From a virus: DNA of 64,000 nucleotides. The stretch lies in UHGV virus genome UHGV-0171999, one strand, 5' to 3'. Shown here piece by piece: positions 2,120 through 64,000 of this stretch. Position 1 is the stretch's first letter; every line of letters starts with the position of its first letter. Below the pieces are notes generated by a model, which searched no databases, was not told where the DNA came from, and saw only the letters and a list, made by a program, of their open reading frames with translations. A program made the position numbers and the translations under genes.

Positions 2120-2225
2120 TTCTATTATCTTCCATTCTTTTCTATTGTTTGTTCTAATTGGAATTGAATGGAAGGGACTTAGATCCATTATACCACCAAC
2201 ATTTATAAAGCATTATGAGGAATAT

Positions 2226-2805: not shown

Positions 2806-3518
2806 ATGAAACTAATCTTTTTAAGCGGTGTAAAGCGTAGTGGAAAAGATACCACTGCTGATTTTATTATGAATAATTATTTTGCAGTTAAATATCAACT
2901 TGCTGGTCCGATTAAAGATGCACTAGCCTATGCGTGGGGTGTATTTGCATCAAACACCGTTCATCCTTGCTTAACTCGTAAAGAGTTTGAAGGAATTGAC
3001 TATGATCGTGAAACTAATTTAAATCTGACTAAATTAGAAGTAATTACGATTATGGAACAAGCATTTTGCTATCTTAATAATAAAAGCCCAATTAAAGGTG
3101 TGTTTGTTTTTGATGACGCAGTTAATTTCGTAGCATTTAACAAGATTGCTGACGTTATAAATAATATTGAAGATCAATGGTCAGTCCGTCGTCTGATGCA
3201 AGCCCTAGGTACGGATTTGATTGTTAATAACTTCGACCGCATGTATTGGGTAAAATTATTTGCTTTAGATTATCTTGATAAATTTAACTCAGGTTATGAT
3301 TATTATATCGTTCCTGATACTCGTCAAGATCATGAAATGGATGCGGCTAGGGCGATGGGTGCTACAGTAATTCATGTAGTTCGTCCTGGTCAAAAATCCA
3401 ATGATACTCATATTACAGAAGCTGGATTGCCAATTCGTGATGGCGATTTAGTAATTACAAACGATGGTTCTCTTGAAGAACTTTTTTCTAAAATTAAAAA
3501 TACACTAAAGGTACTATA

Positions 3519-5606: not shown

Positions 5607-5679
5607 TGGGAATTAGCCAAGTTGGTAAGGCACTGGATTTTGATTCCAGGATGCAAAGGTTCGAGTCCTTTATTCCCAG
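5607..5679 (+). tRNA. tRNA-Gln (anticodon UUG)
   Basis: Manual cloverleaf: acceptor TGGGAAT/ATTCCCA, anticodon loop TTTTGAT, T-loop TTCGAGT. Confidence 0.8.
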
Positions 5680-5680
5680 C

Positions 5681-5767
5681 GCGAGAATGGTCAAATTGGT
5701 AAAGGCACAGCACTTAAAATGCTGCGGAATGATTTCCTTGTGGGTTCGAGTCCCACTTCTCGCACCA
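5681..5767 (+). tRNA. tRNA-Leu (anticodon UAA), long variable arm, encoded CCA
   Basis: Acceptor GCGAGAA/TTCTCGC, anticodon loop CTTAAAA, long extra arm. Confidence 0.8.
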
Positions 5768-5772
5768 AATTT

Positions 5773-5846
<74 letters not shown>

Positions 5847-5856
5847 ATTTAATTTA

Positions 5857-5931
5857 CTCCGTGTAGCTCAATGGCAGAGCGATCGCCTGTTAAGCGATTG
5901 GTTATAGGTTCGAATCCTATCACGTCCGCCA
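5857..5931 (+). tRNA. tRNA-like gene, anticodon GUU (Asn-type), acceptor stem mismatched as read; possible pseudo or chimeric tRNA
   Basis: Clean D-arm, anticodon arm (loop CTGTTAA) and T-arm (GGTTCGAATCC), but 5' CTCCGTG vs 3' CACGTCC leaves top three acceptor pairs unpaired. Confidence 0.45.
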
Positions 5932-5935
5932 AATC

Positions 5936-6011
5936 CGAGGCATAGCTCAGAAGGAAGAGCAAGGACCTTCTAAGTCCTAGGTCGTAGGTTCGATCCCTAC
6001 TGCCTCGACCA
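5936..6011 (+). tRNA. tRNA-Arg (anticodon UCU), encoded CCA
   Basis: Acceptor CGAGGCA/TGCCTCG, anticodon loop CTTCTAA, T-loop TTCGATC. Confidence 0.8.
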
Positions 6012-24090: not shown

Positions 24091-24618
24091 ATGAACGCTA
24101 AAGATATTTTCAACTTGGTAAATTACAACGATGGTAAATTTAAATCTGAAGCACAAAGCAAGTTCTTTAATGACATCTCAATCGGAGGTGAAATCACTGT
24201 TGATGGAGGACAAATTTACAAATCACGTTGGAATTGGATCGTTATTATCGATGAGATTGGTATTGTAGAAATTTACAAGAATACGAATAAAAATCGTACA
24301 TTACACTGGTCTCGTGATACTAACGAACAGTATAAAAAGGATAAAGCATCTAAATTATCTCGTGTAACTCAAGAAGATATTGAGTTCATCAAGAAAGATA
24401 TTTTAATGTATGATAACTTAATTGCTGAAGAGCAAGCTGTTATTGATAAATTTGATGAGATTAAAGCTTCTCGTGAAATTCCTGATTTTATGAAAGAATC
24501 AGTAAATGAACGATACACTCTCATTTCAGAGCGTATTGAAACTTACAAAAAGCAAAGAGCTGAACGCCAAAATACTCTTCGGAAGTTTGAAGAACGGTTA
24601 AAGACGGTACTCGCATAA
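24091..24618 (+). CDS. hypothetical protein
   Basis: 175-aa ORF after promoter cassette and GGAGGAACA Shine-Dalgarno. Confidence 0.6.
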   Translation: MNAKDIFNLVNYNDGKFKSEAQSKFFNDISIGGEITVDGGQIYKSRWNWIVIIDEIGIVEIYKNTNKNRTLHWSRDTNEQYKKDKASKLSRVTQEDIEFIKKDILMYDNLIAEEQAVIDKFDEIKASREIPDFMKESVNERYTLISERIETYKKQRAERQNTLRKFEERLKTVLA

Positions 24619-24673
24619 CCGCTTTATACCAAGGATGGTATAATGGTTCTAAGCCCTTTTAATTGAGATTATT

Positions 24674-25081
24674 ATGAAACAGTTGATAATTAAAAGATTG
24701 AATTTATTGATATGTTGTTTATGTGTAGTAGTTGCATATGGTTATTACGCAATTAATGATTATATGCACTATAAAGATTATGATGTTACTGTAGTTAATA
24801 CTATTACAGGAACACAAGGAAAGGGGTCTAGTTTATCGTTTATTGCCGTATATGAACTTAAAGACGATTATAGATTTAGTGAATATATTTCCCCAGAGAT
24901 GTATTCTTCAATAGAAAAAGGTGATAATATTACTGTAAGTTTACGTCCTTTCGACGTAAAACAGACACTGTTTGATAATATTGTTTGGTTCTTTGGAATG
25001 GTATTAGTTCAATCCGTATGTGGCGCTTATGTAGTCTGTTCCATCTTGTTCTGTATATTTAGTAAAATTGAAATTGAGTGA
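24674..25081 (+). CDS. membrane protein
   Basis: 135 aa with hydrophobic N- and C-terminal segments. Confidence 0.55.
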   Translation: MKQLIIKRLNLLICCLCVVVAYGYYAINDYMHYKDYDVTVVNTITGTQGKGSSLSFIAVYELKDDYRFSEYISPEMYSSIEKGDNITVSLRPFDVKQTLFDNIVWFFGMVLVQSVCGAYVVCSILFCIFSKIEIE

Positions 25082-29459: not shown

Positions 29460-29933
29460 ATGTTATTGACTGGCAAATTATACAAAGAAGAAAAACAAAA
29501 ATTTTATGATGCACAAAACGGTAAATGCTTAATTTGCCAACGGGAACTAAATCCTGATGTTCAAGCTAATCACCTTGACCATGACCATGAATTAAATGGA
29601 CCGAAAGCTGGAAAGGTGCGTGGATTGCTTTGTAATCTGTGTAATGCTGCGGAAGGTCAAATGAAGCATAAATTTAATCGTTCTGGCTTAAAGGGACAAG
29701 GTGTTGATTATCTTGAATGGCTAGAAAATTTACTTGCTTATTTAAAATCCGATTACACCCAAAATAATATTCACCCTAACTTTGTTGGAGATAAATCAAA
29801 GGAATTTTCTCGTTTAGGAAAAGAGGAAATGATGGCTGAGATGCTTCAAAGAGGATTTGAATATAATGAATCTGACACTAAAACACAATTAATAGCTTCA
29901 TTTAAGAAGCAGCTTAGAAAGAGTTTAAAATGA
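29460..29933 (+). CDS. 49: endonuclease VII (Holliday junction resolvase)
   Basis: MLLTGKLYKEEKQKFYDAQNGKCLICQRELNPD... matches remembered T4 gp49; 157 aa. Confidence 0.9.
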   Translation: MLLTGKLYKEEKQKFYDAQNGKCLICQRELNPDVQANHLDHDHELNGPKAGKVRGLLCNLCNAAEGQMKHKFNRSGLKGQGVDYLEWLENLLAYLKSDYTQNNIHPNFVGDKSKEFSRLGKEEMMAEMLQRGFEYNESDTKTQLIASFKKQLRKSLK

Positions 29934-62604: not shown

Positions 62605-62630
62605 AGCTTCTGAAGTATATGGAGGCTATC

Positions 62631-63254
62631 ATGATTATTAATCTTGCAGATGTTGAACAGTTATCTATAAAAGCTGAAAGTGTCGATTTTCAATATGATA
62701 TGTATAAAAAGGTCTGTGAAAAATTTACTGACTTTGAGCAGTCAGTTCTTTGGCAATGTATGGAAGCCAAAAAGAATGAAGCTCTTCATCGGCAGTTGAA
62801 TAAAATCGTTAAAAAGCATTTAACTAAATCACCTTATCAGCTATATCGTGGTATATCAAAATCGACAAAAGAACTCATTAAAGATTTACAAGTCGGAGAA
62901 GTGTTTTCAACGAACAGAGTAGATTCATTTACTACTAGTTTGCACACAGCGTGCGGTTTTTCTTATGTTGAATATTCCACTGAAATAATATTTCGCTTAA
63001 AAACTGATAAAGCTTTTAATTACTCTGACCATATCAGCGATATTATACTTTCTTCTCCTAATACTGAGTTTAAGTATACATATGAAGATACCGATGGATT
63101 AGATTCAGAACGTACTGATAACTTAATGATGATTGTACGTGAACAAGAATGGATGATTCCAATTGGAAAGTATAAAATAACTTCTATTTCAAAAGAAAAA
63201 TTACACGATTCATTTGGAACATTTAAAGTGTATGATATTGAGGTAGTTGAATGA
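62631..63254 (+). CDS. modB: ADP-ribosyltransferase ModB
   Basis: R (LYRG), S-T-S (FTTS) and ExE (EQEWMIP) motifs; 207 aa from internal ATG. Confidence 0.8.
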   Translation: MIINLADVEQLSIKAESVDFQYDMYKKVCEKFTDFEQSVLWQCMEAKKNEALHRQLNKIVKKHLTKSPYQLYRGISKSTKELIKDLQVGEVFSTNRVDSFTTSLHTACGFSYVEYSTEIIFRLKTDKAFNYSDHISDIILSSPNTEFKYTYEDTDGLDSERTDNLMMIVREQEWMIPIGKYKITSISKEKLHDSFGTFKVYDIEVVE

Positions 63255-63853
63255 AATATTCAGCAATGCAATTAAAAGATTTTAAAATCAAATCAATGGA
63301 TGCATCGGTGCGTGCTTCTATTCGTGAAGAATTACTTTCTGAAGGATTTAATTTATCCGAAATTGAACTTTTAATTCATTGTATTACTAATAAGCCAGAC
63401 GATCATTCTTGGTTAAATGAAATAATCAAATCTCGTTTGGTTCCAAACGATAAACCTCTTTGGAGAGGTGTTCCAGTTGAGACTAAGCAGGTGTTAAATC
63501 AAGGAATTGATATTATTACATTTGATAAAGTAGTATCAGCTTCATATGATAAAAATATAGCTCTACATTTTGCTTCTGGATTAGAATACAACACGCAAGT
63601 TATTTTTGAATTCAAAGCTCCTATGGTGTTTAATTTCCAGGAGTATGCTATAAAAGCTCTACGTTGTAAAGAATATAGTCCGAGTTTTAAATTTCCGGAT
63701 AGCCATCGTTATCGTAATATGGAATTAGTTTCAGATGAACAAGAAGTAATGATACCAGCTGGAAGTGTATTTAGAATTGCGGATAGATATGAGTATAAAA
63801 AGTATTCAACATACACTATCTATACTCTTGATTTTGAAGGATTTAATCTATAA
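63251..63853 (+). CDS. modA: ADP-ribosyltransferase ModA
   Basis: LWRG, SAS, EQEVMIP motifs; 200 aa as T4 ModA. Confidence 0.8.
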   Translation: MKYSAMQLKDFKIKSMDASVRASIREELLSEGFNLSEIELLIHCITNKPDDHSWLNEIIKSRLVPNDKPLWRGVPVETKQVLNQGIDIITFDKVVSASYDKNIALHFASGLEYNTQVIFEFKAPMVFNFQEYAIKALRCKEYSPSFKFPDSHRYRNMELVSDEQEVMIPAGSVFRIADRYEYKKYSTYTIYTLDFEGFNL

Positions 63854-63855
63854 TG
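63792..63855 (+). repeat. direct repeat copy 1 (3' end of modA)
   Basis: 55 nt identical to 63946-64000, about 64 nt with two mismatches. Confidence 0.7.
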
Positions 63856-63909
63856 GAAGGACTTAGATTCATTATACCATGAAAGTTTTAAAGCATTTTT
63901 CATAAAGTT

Positions 63910-63939
63910 GTTTACAAGCTGAAGTAAAAATGTTATAGT
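63910..63939 (+). promoter_or_regulatory. T4 early promoter between the two repeat copies
   Basis: CATAAAGTTGTTTACA, about 18-nt spacer, TATAGT. Confidence 0.55.
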
Positions 63940-64000
63940 ATAAGTAGTATTCAACATACACTATCTATACTCTTGATTTTGAAGGATTTAATCTATAATG
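63937..64000 (+). repeat. direct repeat copy 2 (duplicate of modA 3' end; window ends here)
   Basis: Identical to 63801-63855. Confidence 0.7.

Follow-up and report, generated by a model that had tools for sequence, protein, structure and literature searches.

Why does an intergenic sequence of some 46 nucleotides from the spacer between genes 2 and 3 of a T4-like phage recur just downstream of modA, at a distant locus of the same genome, and what might it do at both places? The window analysed here is a stretch of 64,000 nucleotides of the virus genome UHGV-0171999. It derives from a T4-like Tequatrovirus, being 97-99% identical to many isolates, and its plus strand corresponds to the strand complementary to that deposited for T4 in GenBank.

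The repeated element and its genomic context

The two copies of the element lie next to the following genes:

843-1295: gene 4
1295-2119: gene 2
2226-2756: gene 3
62619-63254: modB
63251-63853: modA, with its stop codon at 63851-63853

These mapped positions confirm the gene names used in the original prediction (gene 2, gene 3 and modA). The resemblance that it had noticed, between 2168-2215 and 63852-63897 at about 37 of 47 positions, was also borne out. Gapped local alignment of 2167-2214 (copy 1) with 63852-63897 (copy 2) gave 41 identical columns out of 48, with 5 mismatches and 2 one-base gaps. The score of this alignment, 57, is far above that of 2000 shuffles (13.6 ± 2.3, maximum 26), showing that the similarity is better than first stated. 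Apart from the element itself, the only comparable tiles in the window belong to a third copy at 24610-24662, located on the strand opposite to copies 1 and 2. A mismatch-tolerant scan for the 19-nt core ACTTAGATYCATTATACCA, allowing up to 3 mismatches, resulted in three occurrences in the window as compared to 0.09 expected:

2177-2195, plus strand: core in copy 1
63861-63879, plus strand: core in copy 2
24636-24654, minus strand: core in the third copy

T4 itself (AF158101) has copies 1 and 2 with one or two substitutions, and both were found in about 500 Tequatrovirus genomes. In another part of the window, at 5607-6008, Rfam identified five tRNA genes; the corresponding region of T4 holds eight tRNAs and segB.

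A predicted middle promoter on the minus strand

The reverse complement of each copy has the layout AATGCTTTA-N12/13-TGGTATAAT-G(G/A)ATCTAAGTCC(C)TTCCATT, with copy 1 reading AATGCTTTA-N13-TGGTATAAT-GGATCTAAGTCCCTTCCATT and copy 2 reading AATGCTTTA-N12-TGGTATAAT-GAATCTAAGTCCTTCCATT. In T4 middle promoters the MotA box has the consensus (a/t)(a/t)TGCTT(t/c)a, with the -10 element at a distance of 12 ± 1 bp (PMC2988021). The box is centred near -30, a -35 hexamer is lacking, and roughly half of these promoters carry a TGn extension of the -10 element (TAnnnT). Pattern scans revealed that the box AATGCTTTA fits this consensus exactly in both copies, that TATAAT is preceded by TGG in both, and that the spacing is 13 bp in copy 1 and 12 bp in copy 2. 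The elements are positioned as follows, the predicted starts being placed by homology to the mapped starts of PnrdC.7 and PuvsY, i.e. at the first A, 7 nt after TATAAT:

2206..2214, minus strand: copy 1, MotA box AATGCTTTA, 13 bp upstream of the -10 element
2187..2195, minus strand: copy 1, extended -10 element TGGTATAAT, with TATAAT running from 2192 to 2187 and TG from 2195 to 2194
2160..2180, minus strand: copy 1, predicted start at A 2180 and conserved initial transcribed region AAGTCCCTTCCATTCAATTCC
63889..63897, minus strand: copy 2, MotA box AATGCTTTA, 12 bp upstream of the -10 element
63871..63879, minus strand: copy 2, extended -10 element TGGTATAAT, from pattern scans
63845..63864, minus strand: copy 2, predicted start at A 63864 and conserved initial transcribed region AAGTCCTTCCATTATAG

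No -35 hexamer and no minus-strand sigma-70 promoter was detected at either copy in a scan for sigma-70 -35/-10 pairs. The pattern TGCTTYA-N11-13-TATAAT occurs four times in the window, where 0.12 matches are expected; two of these are copies 1 and 2 on the minus strand, and the two on the plus strand include the mapped promoter P1 (T4 start 75393). Judged by sequence, both copies agree with a MotA-dependent middle promoter in every respect, from which we infer promoter activity. The module would consist of the MotA box AATGCTTTA, a free spacer of 12-13 bp, TGGTATAAT, and an initial region of about 20 nt, G[G/A]NTCT|AAGTCC(C)TTCCATT, where the bar precedes the predicted start. Taken together, we consider it likely, with a probability of roughly 0.7, that the shared element, read in reverse complement, constitutes a complete, backward-facing T4 middle-promoter module at which MotA/AsiA polymerase initiates.

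Both copies are oriented against every flanking gene. The RNA predicted for copy 1 would be antisense through gene 2 (1295-2119) and gene 4, and that predicted for copy 2, starting 11 nt past the modA stop codon and reaching modA at +12, would be antisense to modA and modB. Scanning the minus-strand antisense path revealed no convincing intrinsic terminator, sigma-70 promoter or conserved ORF that would define a product. Copy 2 in addition has a divergent promoter at its back:

63911..63939, plus strand: srd early promoter, TTTACA-17-TATAGT with TG, back-to-back with copy 2

This promoter is located outside the shared element, the MotA box of copy 2 being about 15 bp from its -35 element, where an UP element would sit, and the same arrangement is present in T4, ECP2301, Mosigvirus, Dhakavirus and Kanagawavirus. 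An association of the element with promoter cassettes, suggested as a check along with the original prediction, therefore holds for copy 2, which adjoins this early promoter, but not for copy 1, which has none beside it.

Neither copy is among the 58 mapped T4 middle promoters (table in PMC2988021), and all of the 58 starts tabulated in that 2010 review are on the early/middle strand. A literature search, made outside the primary promoter-mapping papers and the T4 genome review, yielded no description of either antisense site; earlier work may already have recorded the copies as predicted or inactive promoters. A T4 dRNA-seq study reports 22 antisense starts (bioRxiv 10.1101/2024.04.04.588121).

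Relation to mapped T4 middle promoters

We compared the region from -45 to +30 of all 58 mapped T4 middle promoters (Hinton's table, PMC2988021) with the element, using T4 assembled from four pieces. The third copy corresponds to a mapped promoter, PnrdC.7, and occupies the spacer before the nrdC.7 homologue (ORF 24674-25081), reading ACCGCTTTA-N12-TGGTATAAT-GGTTCTAAGCCC on the plus strand:

24618..24672, plus strand: third copy (PnrdC.7), with MotA box ACCGCTTTA at 24618-24626, extended -10 element TGGTATAAT at 24636-24644 and start A at 24651

The mapped start of T4 PnrdC.7, 53325 (PMC2988021, Table 1), is the first A of CTAAG, 7 nt after TATAAT. PnrdC.7 shares the extended -10 element with copies 1 and 2 and has the start region GGTTCT|AAGCCC. 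It differs from them in its sense orientation directly before the nrdC.7 ribosome-binding site, in its weaker MotA box ACCGCTTTA, and in lacking the TTCCATT tail.

The second relative is PuvsY, the promoter of oriF/ori(uvsY) (T4 start 115371), which reads GTGGTATAATGAATCT|AAGTCCATCCAAT and matches copy 2 at every one of the 21 positions that run from TGGTATAAT to AAGTCC. Among the 58 mapped promoters, exact TGGTATAATGAATCTAAGTCC is common to PuvsY/oriF and copy 2. PuvsY and the two copies are alike in the MotA box, the spacing of 12-13 bp, TGGTATAAT and the start region GAATCT|AAGTCC.TCCA.T. However, PuvsY runs in the same direction as uvsY, and the R-loop of the origin is known to arise from its transcript, whereas copies 1 and 2 are predicted promoters that face against all neighbouring genes. 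In RB69 the PuvsY and gene 2-3 copies carry a common variant, GGTTTTAGGTC. P34i (oriG) and PnrdD resemble the region downstream of the -10 element more loosely.

Genome-wide pattern scans of T4 gave the same picture. The pattern TATAATG[AG][ATG]T[CT][TC] has five occurrences on both strands of the whole T4 genome, each behind a MotA box, namely the two antisense copies, PuvsY, PnrdC.7 and PnrdD. The antisense copies are found at these T4 positions:

11885, T4 plus strand: -10 element of one antisense copy
75988, T4 plus strand: -10 element of the other antisense copy

For GCTT-N13-16-TATAAT, T4 has 17 matches on the early/middle strand and three on the other strand, two of the three being the antisense copies. 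The third, at about 150427 on the T4 plus strand, is antisense inside rnh, has neither a TG extension nor the start region of the family, and is possibly a chance match. PnrdD (T4 start 46440), located at 29842-29867 on the plus strand of the window, has a perfect TGCTTCA-N13-TATAAT and a related start region, GAATCTGACACC, and is a looser member of the subfamily.

Finally, we trained a position weight matrix solely on the 16 nt after the -10 element of the antisense sites from non-T4 genera and then applied it to T4, where the 99.9th percentile of the null is 9.8. The scores were:

anti-gene 2 (copy 1): 17.6, the highest in T4
PnrdC.7: 13.6
anti-modA (copy 2): 12.9
PuvsY/oriF: 10.4
P34i/oriG: 3.7, not significant alone, third among the 58 mapped promoters
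all other mapped promoters: at most 2.1

By these comparisons, copies 1 and 2 are paralogous copies of one module, of which PnrdC.7 and PuvsY are further copies, and the two predicted promoters belong to this small PuvsY/PnrdC.7 subfamily, in an unusual orientation.

Two observations on other members of this group may be added. The RefSeq uvsY coding sequence of RB69 (117104-117598) runs across a PuvsY-type middle promoter, TAATGCTTCA-N-TGTATAAT-GGTTTTAGGTCC, and its annotated start is probably too far upstream. Start regions are also more alike within a genome than across genomes, the T4 copies all having TCT|AAG and those of RB69, VR5 and Roth67 mostly |AGG, which suggests either that the copies convert one another or that they co-evolve with a factor recognising this sequence.

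Conservation across genera

In the gene 2-3 spacer, an antisense GCTT(T)-N13-TATAATG is kept in RB69 (Mosigvirus), Melville (Gelderlandvirus), fGh-Ecl01 (Karamvirus) and VR5 (Dhakavirus). The start region of all four is related (GGTTTTAGGTCTCTTCC and similar), and the intervening approximately 13 bases and the remaining spacer have diverged. The Jiaodavirus examined has no gene 2-3 spacer because genes 2 and 3 overlap, and in JSE (Krischvirus), where the gene 2-3 region is arranged differently, no such element was found. The same antisense module also follows the modA homologue in five further phages, from Mosigvirus, Dhakavirus, Gelderlandvirus and Kanagawavirus plus the Klebsiella phage Roth67, with Mod proteins that are 25-33% identical to ModA of the window. 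Anchored alignment of 14 sequences revealed that TATAAT (14/14), the following G (14/14) and the GCTT core at a fixed distance are conserved, and little else. MotA has been reported for RB69 among the relatives that retain the module.

An exact-pattern scan of IMG/VR gave 18 matches. Among them are PuvsY sites with same-strand ORFs around them; at the two antisense loci every match is surrounded by opposite-strand ORFs alone. The scan also returned one Jiaodavirus-type anti-mod site and one seemingly unrelated match, an exact GTATAATGAGTCTAAGTCC at 3130-3148 of IMGVR_UViG_3300020700_000013 that lacks an upstream MotA box. For gp3, the relatives present in IMG/VR were too few or too distant to be of use. 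From the alignments, we take the retention of box, spacing, -10 element, position and antisense orientation in at least five to six genera as purifying conservation.

The flanking genes are the same ones in all genera examined, apart from endonuclease insertions at copy 1 in a few phages and a repeat at the window end. In phage BW-1 a homing-endonuclease gene (1344-2003 of the BW-1 locus) is inserted between gene 2 and the spacer, corresponding to about position 2117 of the window. Spacer and element are retained downstream of it, so that the antisense transcript would cross the endonuclease gene. In a few other Tequatroviruses the match is lost at the same point, which may reflect the same insertion. 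At its end, the window holds an exact 55-nt repeat of 63801-63855 at 63946-64000 (period 145), the 3' end of modA recurring after the srd early promoter and the repeat being cut off by the window end. In T4, ECP2301 and the 40 best database matches srd follows directly, without this repeat, which represents either a tandem duplication of the unit of modA end, antisense promoter and early promoter (with the junction microhomology AGT) or an assembly artefact.

An oriF-like origin as the main alternative

The main alternative for both sites is that they could have an R-loop or primer role like that of oriF. According to this explanation copies 1 and 2 are additional oriF-type initiation sites, giving MotA-dependent, untranslated clockwise transcripts whose R-loops prime the leading strand. 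It is supported by the near-identity with the oriF promoter, by the precedent of P34i and by G-free transcript starts. The upstream half of a minimal origin (a middle-mode promoter, in an origin of about 100 bp) is present in sequence, as a close paralogue of the oriF promoter. P34i, the promoter of oriG/ori(34) (T4 start 153011), is, like the two copies, a middle promoter in antisense orientation, in this case in the late region (gene 34), and its transcript is the presumed primer; a 'backward' middle promoter whose role is non-coding thus has a precedent. Unlike copies 1 and 2, which are located in spacers, it lies inside a coding sequence, and its sequence similarity is weak (score 3.7). 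The G-free start of the transcript extends over 27 nt at oriF, compared with 23 nt for anti-gene 2 and 20 nt for anti-modA. Under the null, runs of at least 23 nt have a probability of 0.05, and run length is only weakly suggestive.

Measures of DNA unwinding elements did not help to decide. The AT content from +1 to +50 is 0.66 for anti-gene 2, 0.72 for anti-modA, 0.70 for oriF and 0.60 for oriG, the genome averaging 0.65. Neither AT content nor G count nor nearest-neighbour stability separated oriF and oriG from other promoters, and these measures are non-discriminating because the two origins are themselves not outliers. As to location, oriA, oriE, oriF and oriG are all annotated with '(-) strand direction', and copies 1 and 2 face the plus direction. 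The annotated oriE (79355) and oriA (16763) are 3.4 kb and 4.9 kb away from the antisense sites, and we rejected an identity of the sites with oriA or oriE because of this distance of 3-5 kb. According to a review, no middle promoter is known near oriE (PMC3016281). Kreuzer and Alberts found that two fragments, containing oriF and oriG, drive plasmid replication during T4 infection (PMC3016281), and copies 1 and 2 are not among them.

Altogether, we regard additional origins as unlikely. If they existed, their priming would run counter to that of the four annotated T4 origins, some of the activity now attributed to oriE and oriA might be theirs, and the start region in common with PuvsY would be a sequence determinant of R-loop formation.

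Silent look-alikes, mobile cassettes and sense-strand signals

Consensus matches in T4 need not be active. Stoskiene et al. reportedly found in 2007 that some good matches give no transcript, either in vivo or in vitro. The two copies might be silent look-alikes that are unused in vivo and persist by descent or by gene conversion from PuvsY or PnrdC.7. Their absence from the 58 mapped promoters would be in line with this, inactive consensus matches such as GATT boxes are known in T4 (PMC2988021), and the within-genome likeness of the start regions (AAG in T4, mostly AGG in RB69, VR5 and Roth67) is compatible with conversion. Blocks, spacing, position and orientation are, however, kept in five to six genera despite diverged surroundings and a ModA with 25-33% identity, and neutral sequence would not survive in this way. 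Silence of both sites is thus quite unlikely.

The presence of a module of some 50 bp, with a promoter in it, at four loci of T4 also recalls the PeSL/PmSL cassettes (PMC2839356, PMC4122927), short repeated intergenic modules of which the PmSLs, described in vibriophage nt-1 (PMC4122927), combine a Mot-box promoter (Mot box and -10 element) with a stem-loop. The element could then be a mobile or recombinogenic cassette of this type, serving mainly as a site for homologous recombination that shuffles modules. The early promoter next to copy 2, the repeat with a period of 145 bp at exactly this locus in the window, and the homing-endonuclease gene beside copy 1 in some phages would fit. However, PeSLs consist of a stem-loop and an early promoter and flank variable genes, whereas a significant stem-loop is missing from the shared element, no early promoter accompanies copy 1, and both loci are positionally stable across genera in a conserved core or near-core context instead of flanking variable genes. 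We therefore did not assign the element to the PeSLs, as it has neither their stem-loop and early promoter nor their location at variable genes or breakpoints, and consider a mobile cassette very unlikely.

A function on the sense strand would make the element an RNA signal in the 3'-UTR of gene 2 and modA, such as a hairpin, a processing or decay site, or an attenuator. Both copies begin less than 50 nt from a stop codon, and the gene 2-3 spacer contains an inverted repeat that is specific for this locus and connects the end of gene 2 with the conserved start region:

2129-2137: CTTCCATTC, first arm of the inverted repeat
2166-2174: GAATGGAAG, second arm of the inverted repeat

The resulting hairpin, in which TTCCATTC from the start region is paired to GAATGGAAG shortly after the stop codon of gene 2, has a fold z of -3.2 on the minus strand and -3.1 on the plus, i.e. 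sense, strand. Folding also predicts comparable hairpins, whose arms differ in sequence, in three other genera (RB69, Melville and fGh-Ecl01), and none in VR5. RNAalifold gave no consensus structure for six gene 2-3 spacers because the loops do not align, so that the hairpin, derived from single-sequence folds, is tentative; part of the conservation of the gene 2-3 spacer could serve it. For the shared 46 nt, by contrast, the sense-strand fold suggested as a check is no better than shuffles (z = -0.7). Rfam yielded no family at gathering threshold over the whole window other than the five tRNAs, and none with E<=1 over 2050-2300, and scans detected no terminator-like site at either copy. A late promoter TATAAATA in the spacer was discarded, being absent in T4 and RB69. 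In addition, the same sequence is a mapped promoter at PnrdC.7 and PuvsY, in the opposite orientation, and two blocks at fixed spacing with free bases between them form the conservation pattern of a promoter. We thus judge a sense-strand RNA signal to be highly unlikely. A tRNA-like reading of ...CTTAGA...ACCA was dropped because cloverleaf partners are absent.

Of the two explanations offered in the original prediction, relics of the same gene start or a shared element at distant loci, the second stands and the first is hardly credible: both copies do begin with ATG-GAA-GG (ATGGAAGG on the plus strand) and reach a stop within a few codons, but the mini-frames (MEGT* and MEGLRFIIP*) are out of register because of a 1-nt indel, diverging after 2 codons to give 4 and 9 codons, CCG stands in place of the ATG (CCGGAAG) in Gelderlandvirus (Melville) and Karamvirus (fGh-Ecl01), BLASTN against roughly 500-690 related genomes returned no intact parent gene, and the conserved blocks, GCTTT, 12-13 unconserved bases and TATAATG on the opposite strand, are the footprint of a promoter and not of a coding sequence.

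A possible role in the shut-off of modA and modB

Returning to the backward-facing middle promoter as the preferred reading, we propose that polymerase carrying AsiA and MotA would start clockwise transcripts on the minus strand at 2180 and 63864 from about 1-2 min after infection onwards; in T4 coordinates the predicted starts are at about 76,000 (copy 1) and 11,897 (copy 2). The transcript from copy 1 would fire into gene 2 and gene 4, and that from copy 2 into modA and modB, convergent with them. At the latter locus, the toxic early ADP-ribosyltransferase genes modA and modB would be shut off by convergent transcription, with collision of polymerases, and by antisense pairing, and the complex at copy 2 would simultaneously occlude the upstream region of the srd early promoter. 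We regard such a shut-off of modA and modB as the most likely consequence at this locus; it would fit a switch from early to middle transcription.

Even if silent, the sites would still serve as a helpful negative control in asking what MotA promoters need for activity. The conserved antisense middle-promoter modules point to an unmapped regulatory layer in T4, the reference for sigma appropriation and for replication primed by R-loops, whose middle promoters have been catalogued over decades; this may mean a timed antisense shut-off of toxic ModA and ModB or extra R-loop sites. The four-member promoter subfamily with its common start region provides a concrete sequence that can be mutated.
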